Shown in pieces: positions 12,201 to 28,853 of a stretch of DNA of 64,000 nucleotides (position 1 is the first letter of the stretch; every line of letters starts with the position of its first letter). Source of the DNA: an uncultured delta proteobacterium (GTDB taxonomy: Bacteria > Desulfobacterota > Binatia > UBA9968); contig CAWDPO010000041.1 of assembly GCA_963804165.1 (NCBI GenBank), positions 32,001 through 96,000 on the forward strand, given 5' to 3'. The position numbers and the translations under genes were made by a program. A model generated the notes under the pieces. That model was given only the letters and a program-made list of their open reading frames with translations. It did no database searches and was not told the origin of the DNA.

Positions 12201-12267
12201 TCGTTCGACTTGAACCTGGTCCGGTTGTCGGCGCGCGCTCTGCGGCAGCGGGCCATTGGGAGGAGAC

Positions 12268-13416: not shown

Positions 13417-13454
13417 AATCCGCCTAAACCGAGTTTGAAAGGAGACTTATTGAA

Positions 13455-14945
13455 ATGACCGCACTAGAGGCTAGGAAACTAGCCGAAGACGAAATGAGAG
13501 CCGGGAAAACCCCGAAGTACACCGACCTGCGTGACTGGTTGGAGATTGTCGACAGCGTCGGCGAACTGAAAAAGATCGATGGCGCCGATTGGAACCTCGA
13601 AATGGGTACCCTGGCCGAGCTATTATCCCGCGAGACCAAAAGCGGCTCCGTGCCGGCGGTTCTATTCGACAACGTGCCCGGTTATCCAAAGGGTTTCCGC
13701 ACTCTGTTCGCCCAGAACGCTTCGTTCAAACGCATGGCTTTAAATTTGGGCCTGGACATGAACCTTTCCAGTCTCGATCTGGTTCGTGCCTTCCGCCAGA
13801 AGCTCGTCACGCACGAGCCGATTAAGCATAAGGTCGTCACCAAAGGCCCGATTCTTGAGAACGTCGATTCCGGCGACAAGGTCGACCTGCTTAAGTTCCC
13901 AGTTCCTTTCATGCATGAATTGGACGGCGGGCGTTTCATCGGCACGGCTTGCTTGGTGACCACTCGCGACCCGGATGAAGGCTGGGTAAATTTCGGTGCT
14001 TACCGCGGCATGGTCCATGACAAAAATAGCATGGGTCTTTACATCTCGCCCGGAAAGCACGGCAGCATTCAGCGCAACAAATACTTTGAACGCGGGAAGC
14101 CGTGCCCGGTCGTCGTTTCAGTCGGCCAAGACCCGGTGCTGTTCATGGTCTCCGGTAACGAGATCGACTACGGCGTGTCCGAGTTCGATTATGCCGGCGG
14201 TCTCAAGGGCGCGCCCATCGAAGTCATTGAAGGCAAATCCACGGGCCTACCGTTCGCGGCCCAGGCGGAAATCGTTATCGAAGGTTGGATGGACCCGACC
14301 GACAGGAAGACCGAAGGCCCATTCGGCGAGTGGACCGGCTACTATGCCAGCTCCAGCCGCCCGGAACCCGTGATCCGCGTCGAAAACGTTTACTACAGAA
14401 ACGATCCAATTCTTTGCTGCGCTCGTCCGGGCCGTCCGCCGTCGGATTATTCCATCGCCAAATGTATGGTGAAGGCGGCGTTGATTTGGGAGCAGGTTGA
14501 AAAAGCCGGTGTTCCCGATGTGAGAGGTGTGTGGTGTCACGAGGCCGGCGGCGGCCGCCTTTTCAATATTATCTCAATCAAACAGCGCTATCCGGGTCAT
14601 GCACGCCAAGCCATGTTGGTTGCTTCCCAAGTCCATGCTGGCGCGTACCTCGGGCGCTACGTGATCGTCGTCGACGAGGACATCGATCCGACCAACACTT
14701 TCGACGTGATCTGGGCTTTGGCCAGCCGTTCCGATCCGGTCGAGTCCATCGAAATTCTCCGCCGCTGCTGGAGCGGCCCCCTCGATCCGCGCATCCAACC
14801 GGGCAAGAAGGGCTTCAACTCCCGCGCGGTGATCGACGCCTGCCGTCCGTTCGAGTGGATGAAAGACTTCCCGCCCGTGGCCGAGTCTTCGCCTGAGCTG
14901 AAGGAGAAGATTTACAACAAGTGGAAGAAGGTTATCGAAGGATAA
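13455..14945 (+). CDS. UbiD-family prFMN-dependent (de)carboxylase
   Basis: N.G.YR, AEIVIEG, EGPFGEWTGYY, VVDEDID...V.WAL..R and IDAC motifs. Confidence 0.92.
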   Translation: MTALEARKLAEDEMRAGKTPKYTDLRDWLEIVDSVGELKKIDGADWNLEMGTLAELLSRETKSGSVPAVLFDNVPGYPKGFRTLFAQNASFKRMALNLGLDMNLSSLDLVRAFRQKLVTHEPIKHKVVTKGPILENVDSGDKVDLLKFPVPFMHELDGGRFIGTACLVTTRDPDEGWVNFGAYRGMVHDKNSMGLYISPGKHGSIQRNKYFERGKPCPVVVSVGQDPVLFMVSGNEIDYGVSEFDYAGGLKGAPIEVIEGKSTGLPFAAQAEIVIEGWMDPTDRKTEGPFGEWTGYYASSSRPEPVIRVENVYYRNDPILCCARPGRPPSDYSIAKCMVKAALIWEQVEKAGVPDVRGVWCHEAGGGRLFNIISIKQRYPGHARQAMLVASQVHAGAYLGRYVIVVDEDIDPTNTFDVIWALASRSDPVESIEILRRCWSGPLDPRIQPGKKGFNSRAVIDACRPFEWMKDFPPVAESSPELKEKIYNKWKKVIEG

Positions 14946-14971
14946 TCAACACTTCGACTGGGATTTTCAAT

Positions 14972-15003
14972 GGGGCGATCGTGATAAACGGTCGCCCCTT
15001 TTT
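14972..15003 (+). terminator. Rho-independent terminator
   Basis: GGGGCGATCG-loop-CGGTCGCCCC followed by TTTTT downstream of the UbiD gene. Confidence 0.75.
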
Positions 15004-15033
15004 CGTGACCCCGATTACTTCGAACCCAATTCA

Positions 15034-15063
15034 TTGACAGCCCTCTCAGCGCGGGACTATAAC
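15034..15063 (+). promoter_or_regulatory. Sigma70-like promoter
   Basis: TTGACA-N18-TATAAC, followed by GGAGG RBS and ATG 15090. Confidence 0.55.
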
Positions 15064-15089
15064 AAGTTAAGATCCGCGGAGGTGAAGCC

Positions 15090-15856
15090 ATGGGAAAATT
15101 AAGACATATCGCGTTTATTTCGCAGGAGCCAAAAAAGCTCAGCGATTTTTACCAGAAATATTTCGGCTTCGAAGAATGCAAAATTTTTCCCAGCGGCTCA
15201 CGTATGGTGATCGATCCGCTGTTCAATTTGGCTTTCCTGCAACGGGCAGCGGTCGAAGTGGCGACGGCGGGAACGCACCGAGCGGATGGCAGTGAAAATG
15301 AATTGACGATCGGCATCCATCACTATGGTTTTATGGTGGATGATCTCGACCAAGCGGTAGCAAAACTGCCGGCGAATTTAACCCGTGGGACGACACCGCA
15401 GGTTTCCGCCGGTGTCGGCGGTCCCGAAGGTGCACGGCCTGCCGAAGTCCGATTCCTCGATCCTTGGGGAAACAACGTCGATCTTTCGTCTCGCGGATTT
15501 CTCGGCAGAGAAGAAAAGAAACTTCCCGGCGTGCGGATGCTCGCCGTGCAAGTACCCGACTTGGCCGCGGCCTGTGAGTTTTACCAACAGCAGTTCGATT
15601 TACAGATCGTCGGTTGGAGTGATGATGGGACGATTCGTCTTAGCGATGGAACAGTGACACTACTGCTGACCAAGTCACAAGTGCGGCCGAAAGGCGGCGT
15701 CCAGTATTTTGGCATTCAAGTGAGCGATCTACCGGCGTTAAAAGACGCCTGCAGGAAGACGGGGTGGCGGTTTCGGAAGGGCCGAGCGATCAAATTCAAC
15801 TTATTGACCCGGAAGGAAATCGAGTAGTGATTTCCCAGTCCGGCTGGACCAACTAA
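15090..15856 (+). CDS. VOC/glyoxalase-family protein (one base missing in A-run near 15742)
   Basis: LRHIAF, HHYGF, DPWGN; shifting frame at the A-run restores RRLQEDG...LIDPEGNRVVISQSGWTN-stop at 15856. Confidence 0.8.
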
Positions 15857-15922
15857 AGTGTTAATGCCGTGAGAACGTCCCGCTTCTCACGCTTGATTCC
15901 TTAAGCGATTATCCGTCGCGAA

Positions 15923-16921
15923 CTAGGGCAGTCGTAGTTCCTTCTGAACTTCCCGGAGAATACTGAAATCGGCGATCTCGCTTAGTGGAATCTCTCGGGT
16001 AATCTTCACATCTTTTTTCGCCTGGTCGATTAGCAAATTCAGGCCGTCGGCGGGAATTCCGCCGTCGTGGCTGATCACTTTCACGGTCGCGTCGTAAGAT
16101 GCGTAAGCGTGTTCCGGTTTGGCTTTTGCCCATGCCATCAAGATTTTCACCGATTCTTCTCTATTTTCACGGATGAAACGGCTCGCCTTGATAAGGGCTC
16201 TGATCATTCTTTTTACTTGATCGCGGTTTTGTTCGATGGACTTGATATTCACACCGACACCCGATAGCGGGTAGTTCACATACTCGTAGGCGCGGGCGAG
16301 GATGTTGTACCCTAATTTTTTACCCTCAAAGTCCAACGGCGGAGAGGTTACTACTGCGTCGGCGAGTTTTTGTTGAAGGGCAGCGAAGCGGGCCGAGTCG
16401 GTTCCCAAAGGTACGAATTGGATTTCCTTTTCTGGATCGATGCCGTTGCGCGCAAGAATTAATCTCGCCAGCACATGGGTCGCATCGCCGAAGCCGGCGA
16501 GACCGACTTTTTTTCCGCTTAGATCCTTGATTGTTTTGATTTCGGGTCGGGCCAGCAACACGTGAGGCGAGCTCGTCATCAGGCCGGCAACCAGCCGTAC
16601 CGGCAGGCCGCGGATGGCGGCTCTAATGACCGTGCCTGTGAGCAGGGTGCCGTCGATATCACCGTTCGACAAGGCGGCGATCGAAGGGGCCGCGCCCATG
16701 ACGACAATTTCCGCGTCGAGTCCTTCGTCTCTAAAAAAGCCTTTGTGCAGCGCGACTCCTGAGGAAAGAAAGATCATGTTGTAGCCGCCGGACACCGAGA
16801 TGCGGATTTTTTCCGCCGCGTGACCAGCGGATGGGATTGCCAGAAAACATATCAGAAGGGCCGTGAGGTACGTCGAATAATTCAGCATCGGGAATTTCCT
16901 ATTAGCCGTCTCGATGTCCAA
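15923..16921 (-). CDS. ABC transporter substrate-binding protein (NMT1/SsuA type)
   Basis: Signal peptide; KGFFRDEGLDAEIV, DLSGKKVG, ARFAAL motifs. Confidence 0.85.
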   Translation of the reverse strand: MDIETANRKFPMLNYSTYLTALLICFLAIPSAGHAAEKIRISVSGGYNMIFLSSGVALHKGFFRDEGLDAEIVVMGAAPSIAALSNGDIDGTLLTGTVIRAAIRGLPVRLVAGLMTSSPHVLLARPEIKTIKDLSGKKVGLAGFGDATHVLARLILARNGIDPEKEIQFVPLGTDSARFAALQQKLADAVVTSPPLDFEGKKLGYNILARAYEYVNYPLSGVGVNIKSIEQNRDQVKRMIRALIKASRFIRENREESVKILMAWAKAKPEHAYASYDATVKVISHDGGIPADGLNLLIDQAKKDVKITREIPLSEIADFSILREVQKELRLP

Positions 16922-17114
16922 GTGTCAATAGCCGCGAGCGAGTCTCTAACGATCACGTACACGAAACACGATCAGGTTTATCGGACTTGACCCATTCCGT
17001 GCGACCGGTGTAGTTGTGGCGAAACAAAGACGGGCGTACGTGATACGCCCCTACGGAAATCCGTGTTTGCCGAATTGTTGGCTGGTAACATTTTGTTTTT
17101 TGAAGGAGGAATGT

Positions 17115-17489
17115 ATGCGCGTGCTCAAAATTAACGAATTAGCGGAAAAGCCGATGGACACCGCCACGCCGATCGCGGGATGGACCGGCGGAGAGGTGAG
17201 CCGGACCCGGCAAGCGATTATCGGCGACGGGCAGTCGGAAAATTTTCGCTGCAACGTGGTGAATTTTCGCGTTGGCGCGACGACGGGCTGGCATGTGCAC
17301 GACTGCGATCAGATTCTCGTCGTTACGGCGGGCAAAGGTTTTGCCGCAACGGAATCCGAGCAGCGGGAGATTACGGTCGGAGATGTCGTGCATATCAAAG
17401 CTGGTGAGCGCCACTGGCATGGCGCATCGGCAGAATCGCCATTGTCACATATCACGGTGACGACGGTCGGAAGCACTTCGAAGCATTAG
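17115..17489 (+). CDS. Cupin-domain protein
   Basis: WHVH..DQIL.V..G.G and GD.V.I.AGE.HWHGA; AAGGAGG RBS. Confidence 0.88.
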   Translation: MRVLKINELAEKPMDTATPIAGWTGGEVSRTRQAIIGDGQSENFRCNVVNFRVGATTGWHVHDCDQILVVTAGKGFAATESEQREITVGDVVHIKAGERHWHGASAESPLSHITVTTVGSTSKH

Positions 17490-17602: not shown

Positions 17603-18346
17603 TTAACGGCCCCCACGTTTCGTCTTGATCTCGTAACCGAACAGATCGCTGCGATAGAAACCGGCCGTGCGCAGAACAAGTTTCTTCTTGTGTAAATAAT
17701 TTCGCTCGACGAACAACACAGGGGAGCCGGTGGGGATTTCCAAGTGGGCCGAAACCTGGTGGTCCGCGAGCTTGGCGCTGACAACCAGCTTGAGGCCAGC
17801 AATCTTGATCCCCAGCCGGTCTTCAATGATGTTCGTGAGCGGCTGTTTCAGCAGCCGGTCTCGCGGGACCTTATCAAGCATGCGGGCGGGGACGTAGGAA
17901 TTCACGAACGCGAGGGGGCGACCGTATGCCATCCTCACCCGCGTGATCTTCGTGATTTTTTCATCCGCATCCAAGTTAAAATCTCGGCGCAGCTCTGGCG
18001 CGGCCGTTTTTGTGTCGATCCGCAGCACTTTGAAGCTCGTACCTTCCGGATTGATGCTCACAAGATTTGCCGCATCGATTTCGAGATTAATCGGCTGCTT
18101 GACCGGTCCGCTCCAGGTGACGAAAGTTCCCTTGGCGCGCTCGCGGCGCACCAAGCCTTCGCGGGTCAAGTCTGCGAGGGCTTGGCGAACCGTGATGACG
18201 CTAACGTCGAGGCGTCGCGCCAGATCCAATTCGCCGGGGAGCTGGAATCCCGTGCGCCATTCGCCCGATAAAATATTGTCGCGGAAAGCGGTCATGACTT
18301 TAAAGTAGAGCGGCACTGGAGAGGGAGAACTGCTAGCGAGGCGCAT
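17603..18346 (-). CDS. GntR-family regulator (HutC/UTRA type)
   Basis: LPGE..LA..L.VS..TVRQAL..L..EGLV.RE..KGTFV HTH followed by UTRA domain. Confidence 0.9.
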   Translation of the reverse strand: MRLASSSPSPVPLYFKVMTAFRDNILSGEWRTGFQLPGELDLARRLDVSVITVRQALADLTREGLVRRERAKGTFVTWSGPVKQPINLEIDAANLVSINPEGTSFKVLRIDTKTAAPELRRDFNLDADEKITKITRVRMAYGRPLAFVNSYVPARMLDKVPRDRLLKQPLTNIIEDRLGIKIAGLKLVVSAKLADHQVSAHLEIPTGSPVLFVERNYLHKKKLVLRTAGFYRSDLFGYEIKTKRGGR

Positions 18347-18382
18347 GTCGATTACCTATATGTTTGCAACAGGAGGTCAATT
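18336..18382 (-). promoter_or_regulatory. Promoter/operator-like segment, copy 1 (directly upstream of gntR ATG)
   Basis: About 37 of 48 positions identical to 19813-19860; minus strand TTGACCTCCT...CATATA...ACATGCGC. Confidence 0.5.
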
Positions 18383-18391
18383 TGCCGGATA

Positions 18392-19069
18392 TTATGGCGA
18401 GTTTTCCTTGGATCGTGCCGCGGCAGGAATTGTTCGTAGCGCTTCCAAGATCTGCTCGTTGGTGGGTCTCTTCTTATAGTCTGTTTCAATAAAGCGCCAA
18501 CGCACGACACCCTGTTTGTCGATGACATAAGTCGCCGGGTGCGGCCAGCCCTTGTTGTTCGGATTTAAGATTCCATACCGGTTGATGACCTTGTGATCTT
18601 TGTCTTCGAGTAGCGGAAAATCGAGATCGCCGGTAAATCTCTCTTTGAGTTTTTGCACGAATTTTTTCGAATCATCGTGACTGTCGACGCTGACCGCGAG
18701 GATTTGAACCTGATTTTTTTCCTCTTTGGTTAGGAGGCCTTTCAGCTCACCGAGCTGTTGTGTGCAGTAGGGTCACCATTGGCCACGATAAAACACCAAT
18801 ACAACATTCATTTTGCGATAGACTTCTGAAAGAGTAATTCTCCGTCCATCCAAGTTTTCAAGCGTAAAGTCCGGCGCGGTATCCCCGACTTTGACTCTCT
18901 CCAGGTCGGTCGGCGGCAGATCCGCGACGTCTTTAGGGCCTAATTGTGCATTAGCCACGGCAACGGCTAGGTAAAGGAAACTGAATGCAATCGTTATTGC
19001 TAAGCGGTTTCGGAAAGTAGAGCTTTCTCTTGGACGCTCGATACGCCAAATGTGTTTTCCCCACGTCAT
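18392..19069 (-). CDS. Peroxiredoxin-like (AhpC/TSA) selenoprotein with signal peptide; Sec TGA at 18773-18775
   Basis: Single frame (226 codons): GDTAPDFTL...LVFYRGQW-TGA-PYCTQQLGEL...LAVSVD...HPATYVIDKQGVVRW; TGA replaces the first Cys of CxxC. Confidence 0.9.
18743..18772 (-). promoter_or_regulatory. SECIS-like hairpin
   Basis: UGA-N15-CAGCUC GGU GAGCUG. Confidence 0.7.
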
Positions 19070-19214
19070 GGCAATTGTCTCCTTTCGTCACAAAGTAAAT
19101 CCAGATCATTTACACCGCTCGTTATCCAGCGTTACGTCACGGTCTATGAACGATATTCCGCGACAATAGGTTTCCGGATCGAGCAAATCGTCAAATGAGC
19201 ATCACAGCGCCCGC

Positions 19215-19706
19215 CTATTGTTGTTGCGCCTTTCTCTTTTTGAAGAACTGGATATGACTCAACGCGTCGGCGGCAACGATACGTCCGATGGGGCCGATAC
19301 TGTACGAGGCATCACACACCTTTTTGTCCGAATCCAGGATGAAATTCGTGGCGTGGATGATCTTTCTACGCTCTTCCCAGAAAGCGCCGACCTTGTCGGC
19401 GTCTCTCGGCACTTCAAGTCCATAGGCCACGGGAAAGGTGAGTTGCAACTTGTCGACGGTCTCTTTCGCTTTGTCCAAGGGGTCGACCGAGAGAGCCACC
19501 ACGTCGACATTTTCCTTTTTGAATTCTTCGATGTGGGATTGGTAGTCGGCCAACTGCCGCATGCAGTACGGTCACCAACTGCCGCGATAGAAAATCAGCG
19601 CGGCGTACTCGCCCGTGAGGTCCTGGGGCAGACGAAGTGTTTGACCGGCGGTCGTTTGCACCTGGTACTCCGGGAACGAATAGCCAAAGTTGAGCTGTCG
19701 TGCCAT
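19215..19706 (-). CDS. Peroxiredoxin-like selenoprotein; Sec TGA at 19572-19574
   Basis: Single frame (164 codons): MARQLNFGYSFPEY...LIFYRGSW-TGA-PYCMRQLADY...VVALSVD; GGGGAG RBS; the N-terminal part is too short for the ORF track. Confidence 0.9.
19542..19571 (-). promoter_or_regulatory. Weak SECIS-like hairpin
   Basis: UGA-N16-AGUU GGCC GACU at the position equivalent to the other Prx hairpin (alternative fold CGGC AGUUG GCCG). Confidence 0.45.
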
Positions 19707-19812
19707 ATATTCTCCCCTCAGAATTTAATCATCGAACTTCGAACCCCTGCGCAGTTGCGACGCTACCCACCGAACTTCGCGTTGCTCCAGGCGGTCATCG
19801 ACTTGGGATTTC

Positions 19813-19860
19813 GCGACGCGCATGTTGACTGCTTATATGATTAATAGTAGGAGGTCAATT
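19813..19860 (-). promoter_or_regulatory. Promoter/operator-like segment, copy 2
   Basis: Homologous to 18336-18382; lies in the divergent intergenic region of the selenoprotein cluster. Confidence 0.5.
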
Positions 19861-19929
19861 GATTTGTGTCGCTGGCGTGCTGTGTAAATTCGCCGCGGCG
19901 CGACAATTTTTATGGGGGAGGTTCTCATT

Positions 19930-20439
19930 ATGGCGGAGCATTCAGCAGGGAAGAGCGGCCAGCCGGGAGGAATGCCCGGCCGTCCGATCGGCACGGTGCG
20001 CGTCGATATCGCGCGCCAGGAGCACAAAACGTTCGAGGCGGTTTTCAAGACCGAGGACAAGTCATTTCAGCTCATGATCGACGAGCCGGAAATTCGCGGC
20101 GGCAAAGGCACGGGCCCGACGCCGCTGGGTTACTTCGTCACCGGCGCGGCTTCCTGCTTGATGATGCAGTACGCCAACGTTTTGAAGGAGAAGCCGATGC
20201 CGGTGGAAAGCATCAAGATGCTGGCGCGGGCGCACAACGACCGCGACGCGCGGGTCTTCACCGATATGATTTACCAGGTCGATCTCACCGGGTCGATCTC
20301 CGAGGCCGATGCGGAAACGCTGGCAAAGGCGGCCAGTGCGCGCTGCTTCGTAGAGAACACTATCGCCAAGGCGCTGCCGATCACGACAGAAGTAAGCGTC
20401 AATGGAAAAAAGGTCGTGTCGTTCACACGAAATAGTTAA
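19930..20439 (+). CDS. OsmC/Ohr-family protein (Cys form)
   Basis: DEP..RGG.G.GPTPL.YF..GAASC and downstream RCFVENT; GGGGGAGG RBS. Confidence 0.88.
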   Translation: MAEHSAGKSGQPGGMPGRPIGTVRVDIARQEHKTFEAVFKTEDKSFQLMIDEPEIRGGKGTGPTPLGYFVTGAASCLMMQYANVLKEKPMPVESIKMLARAHNDRDARVFTDMIYQVDLTGSISEADAETLAKAASARCFVENTIAKALPITTEVSVNGKKVVSFTRNS

Positions 20440-20475
20440 ATCGCCCATCCACCGCGGGAAGATTAGGAAATCACG

Positions 20476-20637
20476 ATGATCCACCTTTACTACTGGACTA
20501 CGCCGAACGGACACAAGATCACGATCTTCCTAGAGGAAGCTGGGCTGCCGTATTCGATCAAACCGGTCAATATTTCCGTGGTCGGCATGATACCGCGGTC
20601 GGGTGGGAAACGGTTAATCGACGCCTGCAACCGGTAA
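20476..20637 (+). pseudogene. Truncated GST N-terminus (YfcG/YghU-like)
   Basis: MIHLYYWTTPNGHKITIFLEEAGLPYSIKPVNIS then unrelated tail and TAA after 53 codons; TPNG motif of Nu-class GSTs. Confidence 0.75.
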
Positions 20638-20651
20638 GAGGAGAGCGGGTT

Positions 20652-21323
20652 ATGCCCTGGATTAAAATAATTGCCGAGCATGAAGCCGAGGGCGAGCTTA
20701 AAGAGGTCTATAGGAAGATCCGCGAGCAGCGTCAGGGTGAGAAGATCAACCAGGATCGCGATGCGTCCGCCGGCGGGCCGCCGGTGAGCCCGCCGATGCT
20801 GCACAGTCTGAATCCCAAAGCGATGTGGCACACCGCCGAGCTGATGTGGGAGATCATGCGCGGGGAGTCGCGGCTGACCACGGCGCAGCGCGAGATGATC
20901 GCCACCGTGACATCGGCGACGCTGCACTGCCGCTTCTGAACCGTCGCCCACGCAGAGTTTCTGCGTCAGGAAGGCGGCGACGATTTATCGGTAGAGCAAG
21001 TCAAAGACGATTGGCGGCAGATGGAGCTGACCGAAGCCGAGTACACAATGTTGGAATTTGCGGAGAAACTAACGCTCACGCCGAGCAACATGCGCGAAGC
21101 GGACGTGCAGAAATTGCGCGACGTCGGCTGGACCGATCGCGACATCCTCGATATCGTCCACGTGTGCGCCTATTTTAACTTTCGTGTGCGAGTCGTCGAC
21201 GGGCTCGGACTGGAAGTTGCCGATTGGCAGATCCAGCGCGCGAGAGCCGGCGCGCAGCGCGCCGCCAAGTTGGCTGAAGAGCGCGGTGTGGCCATGCCAT
21301 CTGATCCTTGGAAGACACGTTGA
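20652..21323 (+). CDS. AhpD/CMD-like peroxidase-related selenoprotein 1; Sec TGA at 20937-20939
   Basis: Single frame (224 codons): REMIATVTSATLH-CRF-TGA-TVAHAEFLR...MLEFAEKLTLTP...FNFRVR; C-x-x-U-x-x-x-H. Confidence 0.9.
20940..20982 (+). promoter_or_regulatory. SECIS-like hairpin
   Basis: Upper stem ACGCAGA GUU UCUGCGU; lower stem CGUCGCC/GGCGACG. Confidence 0.78.
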
Positions 21324-21332
21324 GGAAAAGTA

Positions 21333-21980
21333 ATGAGCTTCATCAAAGTTATTTACGAGTCCGAAGCGACGGGCGAGCTAAAAGAAGTTTACGAGAGAAC
21401 GCTTAGTCGCTTAAGTCCATCCGTGCGCCAGCGACGCGGCGACAAGCTGCCACCGATCGTGAGAATTTTTAGCCTTTGTCCGGCGCTGCTCGAAGCGCGG
21501 GTGGGCTTCGACAAGGGCATTTACCGGCCCGGCCATTCCGGCTTGGGCCGGCGCAAGGAAGAGCTGATCGCGACTCAGGTGGCGGCGCTGAGTGGCTGCC
21601 GGTTTTGAGGCATCGGCCACGGAGAGTTTCTCCGTGTCGACGGCAAGATGGCGGTGGAGGAAGTCGCCAAGGTGATCTCCAACTGGCGTGAGGCCGATCT
21701 GGACGAGCAGGAAAAAGCCATGCTCGCGTTCACCGAAAAGTTTACACTCACGCCGAGTCAAATGACCGACGCCGATCTCGAGAAGCTGCGCCAGGCGGGC
21801 TTCAGCGACGAACAGATTCTTTCCATCGCTTTGGGCGCCGGCTATCGAAACTGGGTGGATCGCATCGCTGATCTGCTCGGCGTCGAGGAAGAAAAGTTCG
21901 ACTTCCCGGAGGAAATTTTGAAAGCCTTCGGCGTCACCCGCGAGCAGCTTGAGACCTCGCTCTACGAGGATAACCGATGA
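21333..21980 (+). CDS. AhpD/CMD-like selenoprotein 2; Sec TGA at 21606-21608
   Basis: Single frame (216 codons): ELIATQVAALSG-CRF-TGA-GIGHGEFLR...MLAFTEKFTLTP...NWVDRIAD. Confidence 0.9.
21609..21640 (+). promoter_or_regulatory. SECIS-like hairpin
   Basis: CACGGAGA GUU UCUCCGUG, extended by UCGG/UCGA. Confidence 0.78.
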
Positions 21981-22420
21981 GCCGCTTGCAGACCGTCATG
22001 GGAACGAGAATCGCGGATCTGCTTGGCGCGGCGCCGGGCGCGCTCGAAGCGGACAGCGCCATGCGCACTCTGCTCATCGAACATTTGACGCCGCGGCTCT
22101 TCAGTTTGATCGGTATCGTGGTAGCCGGTTGCCTCCGCTGCGAGCGTTTCGCCGACGCGCTGCGCGCCCCACTGGATCAGCCATCGGCCCAACAGGCTGC
22201 CCGTGATTGGCGGGCGCTTGAACTTTCGGCGGCGGAAAAGGCGATACTTGCCTACGCGGAAAAGGGGACTCTCGACGAGGCCTCGGTGCGCTGGCGGGAC
22301 GTAGATCAGCTACGCGCGGCGGGTCTCGACGACAGGGATATTCTCCTGATCGCAACGGCTATCGCTTATCATAATTACTCGATTCGCATGGCAGCGGCTT
22401 TTGACGTCGCGCCGTGCTGA
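21977..22420 (+). CDS. AhpD/CMD-like protein, short Cys form (CLRC)
   Basis: GCLRC, DWRALELSAAEKAILAYAEK.T, LRAAGLDDRDIL...YHNY..RMA align with neighbouring AhpD proteins; ATGA overlap with upstream gene. Confidence 0.8.
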   Translation: MSRLQTVMGTRIADLLGAAPGALEADSAMRTLLIEHLTPRLFSLIGIVVAGCLRCERFADALRAPLDQPSAQQAARDWRALELSAAEKAILAYAEKGTLDEASVRWRDVDQLRAAGLDDRDILLIATAIAYHNYSIRMAAAFDVAPC

Positions 22421-22456
22421 GGGTGTCGGCGTACAAAAAACCAGCGCGCGAAAAGA

Positions 22457-23395
22457 ATGTACGTTCTTGAAGTTTGGAAGGATTATGGCATGCGCGGAAT
22501 AACTCCTAGACGAGAGCAAGGGATGGCAGATCCGGTGTTGGCCGAGATGGTTCATGCAACGGGCGCTACGGAGTCCCGCCACTACGCGGCGGTGAAACCG
22601 ACCATTCAGGCCTATCGCGCCAGTTGGGTGAAATTGGCGCCCTATCGAGATGGTCCCGTGAATTCGCAGCGGGTCCAGGTCGACGACCCCGCGGGGATAA
22701 CTGCACAGGTCAAAGCGAAAGCGATGGAGTTGGGCGCGAACCTGATCGGGGTCTGCCGCTTGCAGCCGCATATGATCGATCTCGGCTCGGAGGTATCACA
22801 GGAGTTCGTGATCGCGTGCTGCGTCGCGGAGGATTACGATAAGGTCTTGCGGGGCGCAGATGCGGTGGAAGAAGAGGCGATGCGAACCTATGCGAAGTGC
22901 ACCGAGATCGCCACGGCGCTGGCCGCTTACGTGCGCGAGATGGGCTACCCGGCGATCGCCCACCACAACGGCGCCAGCGAGGTGCAAGCGATACCGATTT
23001 TCTATCAAGTCGGGTTCGGCGAGCTGGGCCGCCACGGCAGTTTGATCAACGAAAAATACGGCGCGAGTTTTCGTCCGGGTTTCGTGACGACGGACCTGCC
23101 GCTGGTGGAAGATCAGCCGCGGGAATTCGGCGTGCAGGACTTCTGCATGAACTGCAACGTCTGCCAGCGCAACTGTCCGGGCGATGCGATACCGCAGGAT
23201 CATGTGGTCACCCACGGCATCAAACGTTGGCTGATCGATCTAGAGAAATGTTATCCCTACTCGCGACTGCGCGAAGAGTACTGTCATCTCTGCGTCGACG
23301 CGTGTCCGTATATCGTGAAGTCTTATCCCGAAACCTATAGAGCGTTCATGAAGGAGCGCAAACAAGTGGGCTACAAGACGCCGAAAACATATTGA
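22457..23395 (+). CDS. Reductive dehalogenase-like / QueG-superfamily cobalamin and 2x[4Fe-4S] protein
   Basis: GANLIGV, GFGELGRHG.LI..KYG...R...VTTDLPL, FCxxCxxCxxxCP and C-x10-CxxCxxxCP; no Tat leader; start uncertain (22457, 22523). Confidence 0.8.
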   Translation: MYVLEVWKDYGMRGITPRREQGMADPVLAEMVHATGATESRHYAAVKPTIQAYRASWVKLAPYRDGPVNSQRVQVDDPAGITAQVKAKAMELGANLIGVCRLQPHMIDLGSEVSQEFVIACCVAEDYDKVLRGADAVEEEAMRTYAKCTEIATALAAYVREMGYPAIAHHNGASEVQAIPIFYQVGFGELGRHGSLINEKYGASFRPGFVTTDLPLVEDQPREFGVQDFCMNCNVCQRNCPGDAIPQDHVVTHGIKRWLIDLEKCYPYSRLREEYCHLCVDACPYIVKSYPETYRAFMKERKQVGYKTPKTY

Positions 23396-23673
23396 TGGAA
23401 ACCGACGATCAGGGAGGATTCTCCCGCCAAGGCGCAAAGGCGCCAAGTTCGGAAAGTTTCACAATGGAAAAACTCTACGTTAACGAAATCGGTCCCGATG
23501 GCGCCGTCAGCACCGTAGGCTTGTTTTACTCGCAGGCCGAGGCCGAAAAGATTGTCGGCATGCTGCGCGCCAATCCAGACCGAGCAAGCTATAGGTATGA
23601 AATCGTCGAAGCAGTCAGACATATCTTGTCTGAGAAGCAAGCGCGTCGGGCCGTGGCCGGTCAGAAGGAGTAG
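23392..23673 (+). CDS. Small hypothetical protein (start may be 23464)
   Basis: Fills the gap between operon genes; stop adjoins the AAGGAG RBS of the next gene. Confidence 0.55.
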   Translation: MMETDDQGGFSRQGAKAPSSESFTMEKLYVNEIGPDGAVSTVGLFYSQAEAEKIVGMLRANPDRASYRYEIVEAVRHILSEKQARRAVAGQKE

Positions 23674-23675
23674 CC

Positions 23676-24227
23676 ATGCCCTATATTAAAACGGTGCCGC
23701 CGGCCGAGGCTACCGGCAAACTCAAAGAAGTCTATGAGTCGGGCTCCGGCCCATCGGCGGCGCGCGGCAAGGTCTCTATGATCCGCCAGGTGCAAAGCCT
23801 CAATCCCGACAACCTCGCCGCCTGGCGCGCGCTCGACGTATCGATCATGCGCGGCGAATCGCGCATCACGCGCCGCCAACGCGAGATGATCGCGACGGTG
23901 GTGTCGGCGACCAATCACTGCAGCTATTGAATGACCGCGCACGGAGAGGCTCTCCGTACCGAATCGAACGACGATCCTCTGGTCGAAGGGATTAAACAAG
24001 ATTACACACAGTTGAATTTATCCCCGGCAGAGCGGGCCATGTTGGATTACGCGGTCAAATTGACGGTCGCACCGTCGACGGCGAGTGAAACGGATATCCA
24101 TACTCTACGCACCCACGGCTTCGACGACCGCGACATTTTGGATATCGTCTACGTGATCTGCCTTTACAATTTCAACGACCGGATGGCCGATGCCGCCGGC
24201 ATTACCGGGCATGATTTTTTTAGATGA
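23676..24227 (+). CDS. AhpD/CMD-like selenoprotein 3; Sec TGA at 23928-23930
   Basis: Single frame (184 codons): REMIATVVSATNH-CSY-TGA-MTAHGEALR...MLDYAVKLT..P...YNFNDRMADA. Confidence 0.92.
23931..23957 (+). promoter_or_regulatory. SECIS-like hairpin
   Basis: UGA-N10-ACGGAGA GGC UCUCCGU, same spacing as the other two AhpD genes. Confidence 0.78.
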
Positions 24228-24274
24228 GATCATTCAATCGTTCGAGTGTAACGCCCAGTTAGATAGGAGGAAGC

Positions 24275-24820
24275 ATGAGCAAACCCTTAGGCAGGATCGA
24301 TCGAGAAGCGTTTCGGCAAGTGCACAAGGAGCAACAAGAACGGGCGAAACAGGGGCCGGAAGGCTATACGACAACGACGCGGGCGGTGATCAGGCTCATA
24401 GAAAACCAATTGAAAGAGGCGCGCATCGGCGAATACACCATTCAATGCGATGAGGCGAAGTCGCGCAAGGGCGGCGGCAAGGCGCCGTCACCGCTGCAAT
24501 ACTTCGTCGCGGCGACCGGCTTTTGAATGTTCAGCCAACTGGCGCGGTACGCGTCACAACTGGACATCGAAATCGAGGACGCCGAGATGGATATCCGAAT
24601 GACCTATGACACGCGAGGGAAATTGCTGCTGGAAGACGTGTCGCCGGGGTGCAATGATCTGACCTACGTTTTCAAGATTAAGAGCCCGGCGCCGTCCGAC
24701 AAGGTGCAAGAGATGCTGCGGCTGATCGAGAAGGGCTGCCACACGATCAATTCATTGAAAAATCCCGTGCCGGTCGCCGGAAAGCTGATTCATAACGGTC
24801 AGGAGATCGCCGCGCTGTGA
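24275..24820 (+). CDS. OsmC/Ohr-family selenoprotein; Sec TGA at 24524-24526
   Basis: Single frame (182 codons): DE...KGGG.APSPLQYFVAATGF-TGA-MFSQ aligns with GPTPLGYFVTGAAS-C-LMMQ of the paralog at 19930; second Cys in KGCHTINS. Confidence 0.9.
24527..24567 (+). promoter_or_regulatory. SECIS-like hairpin
   Basis: Lower stem AUGUUCAG/CUGGACAU, upper stem UGGCGCG GUA CGCGUCA. Confidence 0.8.
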
Positions 24821-24868
24821 TTCCTACATGTTCAACTTAGCGAAGTCGACGTCAGGAGGCAGAATTTC

Positions 24869-25657
24869 ATGATCGAGCTTTATCACAACGATATGTCGGT
24901 TTGCGCGCAGAAGGTGCGATTCGCCTTGGCGGAAAAGAAGCTTTCCTGGGAGGGGCACCATCTAAATCTTCGCGCCGGCGATCAGCAGAAGCCGGAATAT
25001 TTAAAACTTAATCCCAACGCGGTGGTGCCGACTTTGGTGGACGATGGGAACGTTATTATCGAGTCTACGGTGATCTGCGAATATCTCGACGATACCTATC
25101 CTGAGCCAAAGCTTAAACCCGCCGATGCGCTGGGGCGGGCGCGCATGCGCTTATGGACCAAGCAGCTCGACGAAGGCGTGCACGCGGCAACCAGCGTCGT
25201 CAGCTCGGCCATCGCGTTTCGCTATCAGAAGCTCGCTATCGGCATGGAAGCGCTCGAAGAGTTTCACGAGAAGATGCCCGACCCGGTGAAGCGGGAAAAA
25301 AGCTGGGAGAATGTCACCAAGGGCGTCGAATCGCGTTTCTTTCCCGAGGCGATCAAGCGCTTCGACAGGCTGCTCGCGGACATGGAAGTGTCGTTGACAG
25401 ACTCGCCGTGGCTTGCCGGCCGGGAATTTTCCCTCGCGGATATTGGCTACGCTCCGTACATCACTCGGCTCGATCATCTGCAGTTGCAGTTTCTCTGGGA
25501 CAAGCGGCCCCATATCCCCGATTGGTACGACCGCTTGCGTGAACGCCGTGCTTACAACGAGGCGCTGGAAAAATGGTTCAACGCGAATTACCTGCCGCTA
25601 ATGAAAGAAAAGGGTCTCGAAGTTCGCGACAAAATCAAAGCGATTGTGGCGGGATAA
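24869..25657 (+). CDS. Glutathione S-transferase family protein
   Basis: MSVCAQKVR, LNPNAVVPTL, ESTVICEYLD, WLAG..FSLADI motifs. Confidence 0.92.
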   Translation: MIELYHNDMSVCAQKVRFALAEKKLSWEGHHLNLRAGDQQKPEYLKLNPNAVVPTLVDDGNVIIESTVICEYLDDTYPEPKLKPADALGRARMRLWTKQLDEGVHAATSVVSSAIAFRYQKLAIGMEALEEFHEKMPDPVKREKSWENVTKGVESRFFPEAIKRFDRLLADMEVSLTDSPWLAGREFSLADIGYAPYITRLDHLQLQFLWDKRPHIPDWYDRLRERRAYNEALEKWFNANYLPLMKEKGLEVRDKIKAIVAG

Positions 25658-26816: not shown

Positions 26817-27992
26817 TCATGAAGAATCCACACGAGGCGAGATCGAGAACGCCGGTAGGTCGCCGACGACAATCATCCTTCCCTCACCGCAGCACGGGCA
26901 GCGAGAAAGATCGACGCCTGTGATTTTAAGCAGCAGGTCTTTGGCTGAGAGCAAGGGAGGTTGCGGCAAAGCGGGATCGAGATCGAGGAGTTTGCGGCAC
27001 TGAGCGAGCGCTAGTTTTTTGGCGCGGTTAGCCAACAAGCCGAAGTGACGGATGCGCATGAAGCCTTGCGGCAAGACGTGAAGCAAAAAGCGGCGGATAA
27101 ATTCCTGGGCCTCCAGCGTCATGGTCTTTTTGCGATCCCCGTCTCTTCGATCTCGATAACTCAAGGTGACTTCTCCGTCTTGGATCTGGAGAATACGATT
27201 GTTGGACAGCGCCACGCGGTGGGTGTAGCGGCCGAGGTAGTCAAGCACCGTGTGGGGCGAGCCGAAAGGCTTTTTGGTATAGACCCCCCAGTTCTTTTGG
27301 CGTAACTCGTTGATGGCTTCGCTTGGGAAATCGATTTTTCCTCGCACGATGTTGTGTTGTAACAGATCGAGAAACTTTGCTCGGAAAACCAAGCTTAAAG
27401 CTTTAACCGGAAACAGAAAGTTTTTGCGCGCCGAGATCCAGCGATTTTGATCGAAAGACAGAGCACCGGCGGGGACAAGACAGTGCAGATGAAAATGATC
27501 CTTGAGGGTTTGGTCCCAGGTGTGCAGCACGGCAATGATACCGATGGTTCCCTTAAGACGTGTCTGGCCAAACTCCAACAAGGTTTTACTGACAGCTTTA
27601 AACAGAAGACCCAGTACGATCTTCTTGTTGGCAAGGATCAGCCGGTTCAGTTCATGGGGTAAGGTAAAGACCAAATGAAAATATCCCACCGGCAAAAGCT
27701 CAGAGGTTTGCTTCTCCAACCACCGAGCCTTAGCCAAGGCTTGGCACTTGGGACAGTGGCGGTTACGGCAGGAGTTATAAGCCGGACGCTCAAAGCCGCA
27801 AGACTCGCATCGATCCAGATGCCCGCCCAACTCTTGGGTGCGGCAGGCCGAAACGGCCCGCACCACCTTTTGCTCGCAGGCCAATAAACGATGCGTTCGT
27901 TGGTAGCTCTCCCCGTACTGACGAAAAACATCGGCCAGCTCGGGACGCGCCCTTTTTTCTCCTGCCGCCAGCCCAGGGCTGGCCGGCAGCAT
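26817..27992 (-). CDS. IS91-family (Y2 HUH) transposase
   Basis: Zn-binding C..C...YNSCRNRHCPKC, H.VFTLP, HTW......HFHLH (HUH), YLGRY, FIRRFLLHVLP.GF.RIRHFG. Confidence 0.95.
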   Translation of the reverse strand: MLPASPGLAAGEKRARPELADVFRQYGESYQRTHRLLACEQKVVRAVSACRTQELGGHLDRCESCGFERPAYNSCRNRHCPKCQALAKARWLEKQTSELLPVGYFHLVFTLPHELNRLILANKKIVLGLLFKAVSKTLLEFGQTRLKGTIGIIAVLHTWDQTLKDHFHLHCLVPAGALSFDQNRWISARKNFLFPVKALSLVFRAKFLDLLQHNIVRGKIDFPSEAINELRQKNWGVYTKKPFGSPHTVLDYLGRYTHRVALSNNRILQIQDGEVTLSYRDRRDGDRKKTMTLEAQEFIRRFLLHVLPQGFMRIRHFGLLANRAKKLALAQCRKLLDLDPALPQPPLLSAKDLLLKITGVDLSRCPCCGEGRMIVVGDLPAFSISPRVDSS

Positions 27993-28004
27993 GTGGCTAC
28001 CTGG

Positions 28005-28853
28005 CTACAGCGAGTCGTTGCGCGGATCGAGCAAGTCCAACGGACTCGTGGTCGAGCCCAGCTTGGGCTGGCGGATTTGCAGATAGCGCTGGGTACTCTG
28101 AAGCGAGTTATGACCCAACAGCGTCTTAATAGTCACCAGATCCACTCCCGCTTCTAACAGGTGGGTGGCGAAACAGTGACGCAGCGTGTGAATCCCTTTG
28201 CCTTTTTCAATGCCGCTTTTGTGCTTGGCGAGATTGTAGACTTTCTGCGCGGCGGTGATGTGCAGGGGATCATTTCTGGTTTTACCAAAGAAGACCCACA
28301 GCACGGGTTGATAGGCCTGCTTATATTTTCTCAGCTCGCCAAGCAGCCGTTGGGAGAGAATCGTGTAGCGGTCTTTTTTCCCTTTGCCCTGTTCCACTCG
28401 GATCATCATACGCTCGGGATGAATGTCGCTGAGTTTGAGGTGGATTAGCTCAGTGACCCGAAGTCCCGCCGCATAAGCGGTCATCAGTAAACAGCGGTCT
28501 CTGAGCTTGACCGCGGCGCAAAGCAATCGCTCGACTTCCCTGGGGCTCAACACCTCGGGCAACCGCCACGTCCGTTTTCTCGGCGGCAAGAACAGCTGCT
28601 CTTCGTTCCAGCCCAAAACTTGCTGATAGAAAAACCGTAGCCCCGAGATCGCCACGTTCTGGGAATTGGCGGATAAGCCTCGTTTCTGGAGATGCAACAG
28701 ATAGGCGCGGATCTCGTCTTGCGTCAGTTGATCCGGGAATCGATGATAGTACCTGGCCAGCCCCACCATCGCCGCAACGTAGGACTTCTGCGTCCTCGAT
28801 GCGAAATTTCTCAGCTTCATCTCCTCGATCATCTTGTCGCGTAATACTCCCAT
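28005..28853 (-). CDS. Tyrosine recombinase (phage integrase/XerD family)
   Basis: Y..GLR..E, GKG.KDR, HTLRHCFATHLLE.G, LLGH....ST..Y catalytic motifs; SAM-like N-terminus. Confidence 0.95.
   Translation of the reverse strand: MGVLRDKMIEEMKLRNFASRTQKSYVAAMVGLARYYHRFPDQLTQDEIRAYLLHLQKRGLSANSQNVAISGLRFFYQQVLGWNEEQLFLPPRKRTWRLPEVLSPREVERLLCAAVKLRDRCLLMTAYAAGLRVTELIHLKLSDIHPERMMIRVEQGKGKKDRYTILSQRLLGELRKYKQAYQPVLWVFFGKTRNDPLHITAAQKVYNLAKHKSGIEKGKGIHTLRHCFATHLLEAGVDLVTIKTLLGHNSLQSTQRYLQIRQPKLGSTTSPLDLLDPRNDSL

Follow-up and report, generated by a model that had tools for sequence, protein, structure and literature searches.

Introduction

Six reading frames that lie within 6.4 kb of a bacterial genome are each broken, under translation table 11, by a single in-frame TGA: are these codons stops, errors or instructions for the insertion of selenocysteine (Sec, U)? 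The question is raised by a locus at positions 18392-24820 of a 64 000-nucleotide stretch of DNA, C41:32001-96000 of the metagenome-assembled genome (MAG) G000 of an uncultured Candidatus Binatia bacterium from soil or sediment (7.5 Mb in 46 contigs). This whole stretch is referred to below as the window, and coordinates are window positions unless a contig is named. A first-pass annotation, made from the letters of the window and a list of their open reading frames (ORFs), had proposed that the locus encodes six selenoproteins of three redox folds: two peroxiredoxin-like (Prx1 and Prx2), three AhpD-like (AhpD1, AhpD2 and AhpD3) and one OsmC-like. We have followed up this proposal by sequence comparison, and conclude that these are very probably six genuine Sec-encoding genes arranged in two divergent units.

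Six open frames and their family placement

The six TGA codons lie where they had been reported, on the minus strand at 18775-18773 (Prx1) and 19574-19572 (Prx2) and on the plus strand at 20937-20939 (AhpD1), 21606-21608 (AhpD2), 23928-23930 (AhpD3) and 24524-24526 (the OsmC-like gene). When TGA is translated as Sec, all six frames are open from start to stop, with one TGA each and with no TAA or TAG, and the Pfam matches span the TGA in all six genes. The resulting Sec residues are U99 in Prx1, U45 in Prx2, U96 in AhpD1, U92 in AhpD2, U85 in AhpD3 and U84 in the OsmC-like protein.

The AhpD-like genes, all on the plus strand and all ending on a TGA stop codon of their own, encode AhpD1 (20652-21323; 223 residues; C93-R-F-U96-x3-H100), AhpD2 (21333-21980; 215 residues; C-R-F-U92) and AhpD3 (23676-24227; 183 residues; C-S-Y-U85-x3-H). 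The three paralogues are 41-46% identical to each other and all exceed the cut-off (81.8 bits) of TIGR01926, `peroxidase-related enzyme', with scores of 131.5, 99 and 141.1 bits, respectively; their matches to Pfam CMD have E values of 8.4e-11, 1.5e-10 and 3.6e-12. Residues C93, U96 and H100 (AhpD1 numbering) are invariant in the AhpD alignment (A1), and in PDB entries 6k40 and 3c1l the counterpart of U96 is the second Cys of the CxxC motif. The OsmC-like selenoprotein (24275-24820, plus strand; 181 residues; stop codon TGA) scores 151 bits against NF041052, `OsmC-related (seleno)protein' (cut-off 95 bits), and matches Pfam OsmC with an E value of 3.4e-15. Its U84 and C155 occupy the first and second conserved Cys positions and align with the two Cys residues of PDB entry 3cje. 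The claim that the TGA sits at a catalytic Cys therefore stands for the three AhpD-like proteins (CxxU) and for the OsmC-like protein (first Cys).

The same claim needs correction for the two Prx-like proteins, in which U is not at the peroxidatic Cys. Prx1 (18392-19069, minus strand; 225 residues; W-U-P-Y-C with Sec99) matches Pfam AhpC-TSA over residues 61-191 (E 1.6e-37) and begins with a hydrophobic stretch ending in ANA-Q, which is a probable signal peptide. Prx2 (19215-19706, minus strand; 163 residues; W-U-P-Y-C with Sec45) matches AhpC-TSA with an E value of 2.9e-22 and is without a signal sequence. The catalytic Cys of the BCP structure 2cx3 aligns with C102 of Prx1, and U99 with a Ser three residues earlier; the position three residues before the peroxidatic Cys, which is Thr or Ser in classical peroxiredoxins, is Sec in both Prx1 and Prx2. 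Alignment with 17 AhpC-TSA-type paralogues from the same genome places U opposite the first Cys of WCxxC in four TlpA/ResA-like members, and for this reason we assign Prx1 and Prx2 to the Prx-like 1 (UxxC) or TlpA/ResA-like class and not to the true peroxiredoxins. No NCBIfam peroxiredoxin model reaches its cut-off for either protein. The same genome encodes, on contig C9, a classical peroxiredoxin with Sec at the peroxidatic position (TPGU).

Conservation of the TGA column and selection around it

Related loci were collected by a scan with one genome per species, which gave 316 stretches encoding relatives of the AhpD query; from these, 79 distinct loci were retained for comparison with the window proteins by tblastn. 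The codon at the Sec column is TGA in 146 of the 148 related genes that cover it, all from other assemblies, and three further hits stop short of the column. The TGA-bearing genes comprise 86 of the AhpD1 type, 16 AhpD2, 24 AhpD3, 13 OsmC, six Prx2 and one Prx1, which for AhpD1 (86/86), OsmC (13/13) and Prx2 (6/6) is every gene that covers the column. The two exceptions are a TGC in one of 25 AhpD3 genes (L134, a Bathyarchaeota record) and a GAG in one of 17 AhpD2 genes (L084, a 55% match). Rows L027 and L044 (and L084 if it belongs to the same contig) come from an unpublished genome, G005, and contribute to the counts and to alignment A3; none of the conclusions rests on this genome alone. 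Across 41 related genomes, exactly one TGA is present in each of the 13 best AhpD1 matches (58-100% identity) and one in each of the ten best OsmC-like matches (68-99%), the next OsmC-like group (39-49%) having none, and TGA is found in every one of the 26 best Prx1 matches (57-100% identity). Given a column kept in 146 of 148 genes, and given that six of the TGA-bearing AhpC-TSA, CMD and OsmC members of the 7.5-Mb genome (at least 19) fall within these 6.4 kb, the pattern is more than chance would produce.

Alternation between TGA and Cys codons at one and the same column, proposed with the first-pass annotation as a tblastn check, was found for the OsmC-like and AhpD-like proteins. Cys occupies the Sec column of the OsmC-like protein in L055, L056 and PDB entry 3cje, and that of the AhpD-like proteins in the database records P0002, P0006 and P0023, in L134 and in PDB entries 6k40 and 3c1l; for the Prx-like proteins, the Sec/Cys pairing is provided by the WCxxC paralogues in their own genome. 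Selection extends past the TGA. Pairwise ratios of nonsynonymous to synonymous substitution rates (dN/dS) between window genes and their relatives lie at 0.02-0.17 for the part after the TGA and at 0.01-0.32 for the part before it, with dS mostly between 0.5 and >2 and some values saturated; for Prx2 the downstream values are 0.02-0.03 where computable. An absence of conservation downstream of the TGA, which had been named as evidence that would count against Sec, is thus not what is observed, the constraint being similar on both sides.

It had also been anticipated that gene callers would split such genes, and the databases bear this out: 115 of the 120 closest AhpD1 proteins listed are fragments of 124-191 residues, and the AhpD1 fragments start directly after or end directly before the TGA. 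The other five are full-length records with Cys at the column in three and Trp in two (P0001 and P0120), the Trp apparently arising because the depositors' pipeline used a code in which TGA stands for Trp.

Synteny, another of the checks suggested with the first-pass annotation, was recovered in related genomes. All six Sec genes are present in L068 (genome G019); L135 (G004) and L063 also have six, with an extra AhpD-like gene replacing Prx1, and L071 (G015) has five. These syntenic loci come from related genomes and so are not independent observations. Their most constant core consists of a reductive-dehalogenase-like (RDH-like) gene, a gene for a small protein and AhpD3; in 19 of 25 loci AhpD3 is immediately preceded by the RDH-like gene. 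Not all genomes of the genus have the locus, as AhpD1 orthologues of at least 86% identity occur in eight of the 24 other genomes of the genus that were searched. Three short contigs from other sequencing runs cover the TGA codons of Prx2, AhpD1 and the OsmC-like gene with zero differences, possibly because they stem from the source sample itself. Otherwise, a comparison with four runs at 85% likeness yielded contigs of relatives; among the 40 base differences listed, out of 994, none affects a Sec codon, a share too small to carry a claim. The fraction of the sampled words found in any one sequencing run was at most 0.12, and there was no RNA run among those listed.

Hairpins downstream of the TGA codons

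Decoding of the TGA codons had been expected to involve a 3' selenocysteine insertion sequence (SECIS). The expectation is supported by compensatory changes for four of the genes, namely the three AhpD genes and the OsmC-like gene, but the hairpins of the two Prx-like genes are without covariation. The three AhpD hairpins have a perfect 7-bp stem and a 3-nt loop (GUU or GGC), and start 13 nt after the U of UGA. They are ACGCAGA-GUU-UCUGCGU in AhpD1 (20950-20966, plus strand; folding-energy z score -3.27, with 0 of 200 shuffled sequences folding as well, and a possible lower stem at 20942-20979), ACGGAGA-GUU-UCUCCGU in AhpD2 (21619-21635, plus strand; z -1.98) and ACGGAGA-GGC-UCUCCGU in AhpD3 (23941-23957, plus strand). 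The OsmC-like gene has UGGCGCG-GUA-CGCGUCA (24540-24556, plus strand; z -2.66), with a 7-bp stem, the loop GUA and a start at +16. Each of these 3-nt loops contains a G.

Of the 763 cells that the AhpD stem occupies in an alignment of 112 sequences, 109 of them distinct (A2), 97.9% are paired, compared with 21-60% when the partner strand is slid. Two of its seven pairs have changed on both sides, from C-G to G-C in 37 rows (36 G-C and one G-U) and from A-U to G-C in 33 rows. In the first of these pairs an Ala/Gly codon is matched to a Leu codon at its third position, where the change is synonymous, so that protein constraint alone is insufficient to explain the C-G/G-C covariation. The OsmC stem (A6; 14 distinct sequences) is 99% paired, with three of seven pairs compensated. 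No such hairpin follows the Cys codon in L055, L056 or L134, the second Cys codon of the Cys-form AhpD gene of the cluster or the Cys codon of the Cys-form OsmC gene of the window (both described below), and none follows the stop codons of the Sec genes themselves. The Cys form in L134 has the same H-G-E-A-L peptide as AhpD3, yet it has no stem.

For Prx1 the candidate hairpin is CAGCUC-GGU-GAGCUG (18743-18757, minus strand), the loop of which lies 24-26 nt after the U of UGA; its core stem CAGCU/AGCUG is invariant in 11 orthologues with the WUPxC motif from the 12 loci examined. In Prx2, either of two small hairpins can form but not both at once, ACUGC-N5-GCAGU or (U)CGGC-AGUUG-GCCG(A) (19546-19567, minus strand); the loop of the second is 19-23 nt from the U of UGA. 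Both are kept in eight of eight sequences (A5), with 97.5% and 92.5% of positions paired.

AhpD1-like genes were also encountered in loci of Dehalococcoidia/Chloroflexota, where they form tandem arrays of three to five genes (L104, L105 and L107; also L101-L103 and L111). In each gene of these arrays the codon at the Sec column is TGA, and the hairpin is of the same design, in a GGG-GCC variant. A quick tree groups the clade of the window AhpD1 (19 rows) with Dehalococcoidia clades and places two genes of Binatia family f2 inside one of the latter. The tree hints at a transfer of AhpD-like Sec genes, in either direction, between the two phyla.

Decoding machinery and genetic code

A search of the genome for selA, selB, selC and selD had been suggested as a check. 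It recovered selA, selD and tRNA-Sec above their cut-offs; selB was found as well, but its frame is interrupted. Contig C16 carries selA (610 bits), selB (357 bits, above the cut-off) and selD (385 bits) side by side, selD itself containing one TGA, and contig C24 carries the tRNA-Sec gene (76 bits; reported by ARAGORN as tRNA-SeC with anticodon tca). The selB gene, between selA and selD at about 140.9-142.9 kb of C16 (locus L137:1158-3077), covers residues 24-661 of the SelB of the related genome G004 in four frame pieces. Full-length selB is present in four of the five relatives searched (G004, G015, G025 and G029; G019 has fragments only), and in three of them the cluster is present in whole or in part. 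Among long ORFs of the genome, TGA is the most frequent stop codon (1543 of 3739), and it terminates four of the six Sec genes, which shows that the genome is not recoded.

Weighing the alternatives

A number of observations weigh against the conclusion that this bacterium decodes six Sec genes. The MAG is 80.9% complete with 5% contamination, and the cluster lies on contig C41, separate from the contigs that hold the Sec machinery (C16 and C24). Rfam gave zero matches in the whole window at the gathering threshold, and only two chance-level sRNA hits in 18300-24900 at E values of up to 10; we know of no Rfam model covering bacterial SECIS elements of this kind. The hairpins of Prx1 and Prx2 show no covariation and have energies like those of shuffled sequences (z -0.04 and +0.16), so that the case for these two genes rests on TGA conservation, downstream selection and Sec/Cys pairing. 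The AhpD3 hairpin does not stand out by energy (z -0.94), and the compensatory changes in the stems represent few events, inherited by many related rows and partly tied to amino-acid changes. Finally, selB has three 1-nt insertions relative to that of G004 within about 600 nt, its first open frame ending after 424 residues, while rpoB (1379 residues) and dnaE (1176 residues) are uninterrupted, which indicates that the assembly is not generally ridden with indels. If the selB insertions are real, the strain could not decode the six genes.

This last point is the basis of a reading in which the genes are true Sec genes of the lineage, but the strain has recently lost decoding, so that selB is a pseudogene and the genes end at UGA and are decaying. 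The frame-breaking insertions, the intact rpoB and dnaE and the lack of a second selB among 13 candidates scored speak for it. On the other side, the selB pieces are 58-81% identical to the G004 SelB and free of internal stops, the three +1 insertions jointly bring the frame back, a pattern that resembles a systematic consensus error more than decay, the six genes and selD show neither damage nor a change from TGA to TGC, and the genome is merely 80.9% complete. From the first two of these points and the undamaged Sec genes, a local consensus error appears more likely than decay, and we consider a recent loss of decoding improbable. Translation of UGA as another amino acid, either as Trp or Gly by genome-wide recoding or as Cys by a near-cognate or mischarged tRNA, would agree with the Trp of records P0001 and P0120, and in some organisms a lack of selenium can lead to the incorporation of Cys at the UGA of Sec sites. 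It is nevertheless very unlikely here in view of the stop-codon usage of the genome and of the four genes themselves, the restriction of the in-frame TGAs to Cys columns followed by hairpins, and the presence of the sel gene set and tRNA-Sec. That the TGAs are nonsense mutations or sequencing errors, and the frames pseudogenes or artefacts, is how gene callers in effect treat them, taking TGA as a stop and leaving 115 of the 120 listed AhpD1 relatives as fragments. We find this hardly credible, since 146 of 148 genes, drawn from many independent assemblies and, by record title, from two phyla, share this codon at this column, downstream dN/dS is 0.02-0.17 and the contigs from other runs show no differences over three of the sites.

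Gene layout and neighbouring genes

The minus-strand unit of the locus has the order Prx2-Prx1-GntR, and the plus-strand unit the order OsmC(Cys), AhpD1, AhpD2, AhpD(Cys), RDH-like, 69-residue protein, AhpD3, OsmC(Sec) and glutathione S-transferase (GST). The TGA stop codon of AhpD2 overlaps the start of AhpD(Cys) as ATGA, and the remaining intergenic gaps are 9-60 nt, apart from the surroundings of a GST remnant. The G+C content of the cluster is 0.53-0.59 and that of the genome 0.558, and there is thus no sign of a foreign island.

The plus-strand unit opens with a Cys form of the OsmC-like protein (19912-20439; Pfam OsmC E 1.5e-16), which scores 90.8 bits against NF041052, slightly under the cut-off of 95. 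Between it and AhpD1, an ORF of 53 residues (20476-20637, plus strand) has matches below cut-off to Pfam GST_N_2 (E 0.0016) and GST_N (E 0.0052). There is no gene at this site in L135 and L068, and relatives hold merely about 60 nt between OsmC(Cys) and AhpD1; the ORF is probably the N-terminal remnant of a GST gene. The Cys form of the AhpD-like protein (21977-22420, plus strand; 147 residues; C-L-R-C) scores 54.1 bits against TIGR01926, below the cut-off, and is syntenic in 14 loci. The gene that follows the RDH-like gene encodes a small conserved protein of 69 residues (23464-23673, plus strand), syntenic in most loci that have both the RDH-like gene and AhpD3; a Pfam scan gave no match and it belongs to no known family. 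The unit closes with a GST gene without TGA (24869-25657, plus strand), which is syntenic in L061, L068 and L071. The GST neighbour noted in the first-pass annotation is of that family, with matches to GST_N_3 (E 3.3e-19) and GST_C_2 (E 5.6e-10). The last gene of the minus-strand unit encodes a transcription regulator of the GntR/HutC type (17603-18346, minus strand), with matches to NCBIfam PhnF/HutC-type models at E values of 1e-28 to 1e-30, all under the cut-off; a homologue flanks the cluster in L060, L063, L066, L068, L071, L084 and L135.

The protein described earlier as a dehalogenase-like enzyme is a 301-residue protein with two 4Fe-4S motifs (22490-23395, plus strand; Pfam Fer4_7). 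Its start was taken from orthologues (MRGITPRR), the ORF opening at 22457. The family likeness is weakly supported: the protein does not reach the cut-off of the reductive dehalogenase model TIGR02486 (115 bits against 160.35), and it is short (301 residues versus 413-700 in the matched chains of solved RDH structures). A Foldseek search with an AlphaFold2 (AF2) model of poor quality (mean predicted local distance difference test score, pLDDT, of 59) gave PceA and NpRdhA as the best matches (E 1.5e-11, 24-30% identity, TM score 0.4-0.5), followed by the epoxyqueuosine reductase QueG. A search of the ESM Atlas with the protein returned generic 4Fe-4S clusters only. The description `dehalogenase-like' is fair, and `dehalogenase' would go too far.

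Further features were noted around the cluster. The gap between the RDH-like gene and the small-protein gene holds two short inverted repeats at 23410-23455 (GGGAG-GATT-CTCCC and GGCGC-AAAG-GCGCC). In a comparison with metagenome contigs at 85% likeness, the summed depth at 23421-23453 rises to as much as 954, with loose ends on both sides and in all four runs; this peak may reflect a widespread short motif or a low-complexity effect. Downstream, 1-3 kb from the cluster and past a DUF302 gene, the minus strand at 26817-28853 encodes an IS91-family transposase (Y2_Tnp, E 2.5e-57) and a tyrosine integrase. Upstream, at 12256-17489, are genes for an ABC ATPase, a UbiD-family decarboxylase, a glyoxalase/dioxygenase-fold protein, an NMT1-like binding protein and a cupin, which together have the flavour of aromatic or small-molecule catabolism. 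A promoter and terminator scan gave fewer sites than in shuffled sequences and was hence not used.

Other candidate selenocysteine genes in the genome

Matches carrying TGA make up seven of 22 AhpC-TSA, ten of 18 CMD and two of six OsmC members in the genome, and the rough total of candidate Sec genes is about 30 in this genome of 81% completeness. A scan by coding potential alone was too noisy to use, as it gave 976 candidates and missed two of the six true genes. A filter for nearby Cys and a hairpin left 107 candidates and a test for Sec/Cys pairs within the genome 193; both lists are mixed with repeats and with read-through of ordinary stops (for example in an EF-G gene), so that the total is to be taken as a rough count only. 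Examples of other candidate loci are C11:85346-86683, C45:202941-204278, C17:361981-362595, C33:42075-43700, C17:6276-7418, C40:202541-204163 and C9:92108-92494.

Several candidates belong to other families. There are members of the selenoprotein B family of GrdB-type reductases (one was scanned, at 453 bits; the motif T-U-G-T/S is common to four paralogues), three UGSC-family members by motif, two of which were scanned and are above the cut-off, two rhodanese candidates of the LYCAU type below the cut-off, and PrdB-like and YedE-like Sec candidates. Three near-identical CMD-type genes with the motif C-D-P-U lie within 8 kb at C14:67677-75344, and an OsmC-like Sec gene at C38:31764-32372 adjoins a CMD gene.

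Proposed decoding and function

If the six genes are indeed Sec genes, tRNA-Sec and SelB would decode each UGA as Sec under the direction of the hairpin that starts 13-18 nt downstream within the coding sequence, and the terminal UGA of four of the genes, which has no such hairpin, would act as a stop. The redox centres are of the two-Cys type, and Sec would stand at the attacking position, which is the first of WCxxC in the Prx-like proteins, the second of CxxC-x3-H in the AhpD-like proteins and that of the first conserved Cys in the OsmC-like protein. The selenolate would be the attacking group and would form a selenenylsulfide with the neighbouring Cys; since none of the proteins has lost the partner Cys, this bond can be made and then reduced again.

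AhpD reduces AhpC in mycobacteria, OsmC and Ohr reduce organic hydroperoxides, and TlpA and ResA reduce disulfides. Judged by their families, the proteins of the locus may jointly constitute a selenol-based module that acts on hydroperoxides and electrophiles or reduces disulfides, perhaps under the control of the GntR-type regulator. The AhpD-like proteins would possibly recycle the other members, Prx1 would be exported and act outside the cytoplasm, and the RDH-like protein could be a functional partner. Family membership is also what suggests a role of the locus in detoxification, and no substrate can be named from the sequence.

More speculatively, and with distinctly less confidence than we have in the six genes themselves, the locus might represent an undescribed and vertically conserved type of Binatia Sec operon, in which a short B12/Fe-S RDH-like enzyme is combined with Sec-containing AhpD-like and OsmC-like partners, the RDH-like gene, the small-protein gene, AhpD3 and OsmC forming its core, and further Sec paralogues have arisen by duplication. 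Such an operon might underlie a pathway that depends on selenium and acts on organic peroxides, epoxides or halogenated compounds, in what would be among the most selenoprotein-rich bacteria, with AhpD-like Sec genes exchanged with SAR202-type Dehalococcoidia, in which tandem arrays hold up to five of them. If this were true, the Binatia operon type would rank beside the SAO and Tso operons.

The locus matters in several ways. Selenoproteins of uncultured lineages are badly represented, and the redox capacity inferred from such annotation will be wrong. Binatia are added to the lineages with heavy selenium use. The conserved pairing of the RDH-like gene with Sec-containing AhpD-like and OsmC-like genes gives a functional hypothesis that can be tested, and three diverged paralogues that share one hairpin design with compensated changes are clean material for working out the rules of bacterial SECIS elements.

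Comparison with known systems

The folds and catalytic positions are those of mycobacterial AhpC/AhpD and of OsmC/Ohr, and re-reduction of peroxidase-type partners by the AhpD-like proteins is a plausible analogy. The locus differs from these systems in that Sec would replace the attacking Cys and in that no AhpC of the classical type is present.

The first-pass annotation had regarded the arrangement as undescribed. A literature text search for Binatia together with selenocysteine found nothing, supplementary lists not being covered; a search for Binatota with `selen...' gave papers none of which names selenium in its title, and one for SAR202 with selenoprotein found nothing. The exact cluster was not found in print, but its components are less new than had been supposed: the families are listed, the adjacency of Prx-like and AhpD-like genes has been noted and operons with six Sec genes have been published. 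Thus, the kinds of genes and the existence of Sec operons are known, and this cluster with its RDH-like Fe-S protein and the use of selenium by Binatia were not found in print. In the available part of a published survey of 2026, AhpD-like (TIGR01926, CxxU), CMD-like, OsmC-like and redoxin/Prx-like proteins are listed as selenoprotein families, Prx-like genes cluster with AhpD-like genes in metagenomes, and operons with six (SAO) and with three or more (Tso) Sec genes are described, as is frhA-frhD-hdrA-glpC (PMC13188914). The available part of the Global Ocean Sampling (GOS) analysis counts 299 genes of AhpD-like 1, 225 of Prx-like 1 (UxxC) and five of the OsmC-like family, and reports a single read with Prx-like 1 beside AhpD-like 2 (PMC2398784). 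The largest prokaryotic selenoproteome given in the accessible portion of a further source has 39 genes (PMC9312934).

The AhpD-like proteins of the window resemble AhpD-like 1, a family discovered in the GOS marine metagenomes, as far as the available part of that work describes it, in scoring above the cut-off of TIGR01926, in having CxxU with Sec at the second Cys and in having Cys homologues with CxxC (PMC2398784). They differ from what the same part and the available part of the survey describe in that three diverged paralogues and one Cys paralogue occur together in one Binatia operon (PMC2398784; PMC13188914). Prx1 and Prx2 agree with Prx-like 1 (pfam00578, UxxC) from GOS and the Sargasso Sea, to the extent that the accessible descriptions characterize that family, in their AhpC-TSA domain and in having Sec three residues before a Cys that aligns with the peroxidatic Cys; relative to those descriptions, the probable signal peptide of Prx1 and the pairing with AhpD-like and OsmC-like Sec genes are distinct. 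The OsmC-like selenoprotein matches those of NF041052 and the Sargasso and GOS lists, with Sec in place of the first conserved Cys and the second one retained, and has U-M-F-S where the motif in the available published description is UxxT.

At the level of the operon, no Sao or Tso family was found among the NCBIfam hits of the ten proteins scanned. Like the SAO, Tso and frhA-frhD-hdrA-glpC operons, as described in the available part of the survey, the locus holds several Sec genes, and its six equal the SAO count (PMC13188914). In gene content it differs from these operons: it brings together three thiol-peroxidase-like or oxidoreductase folds with an RDH-like protein and a GST.

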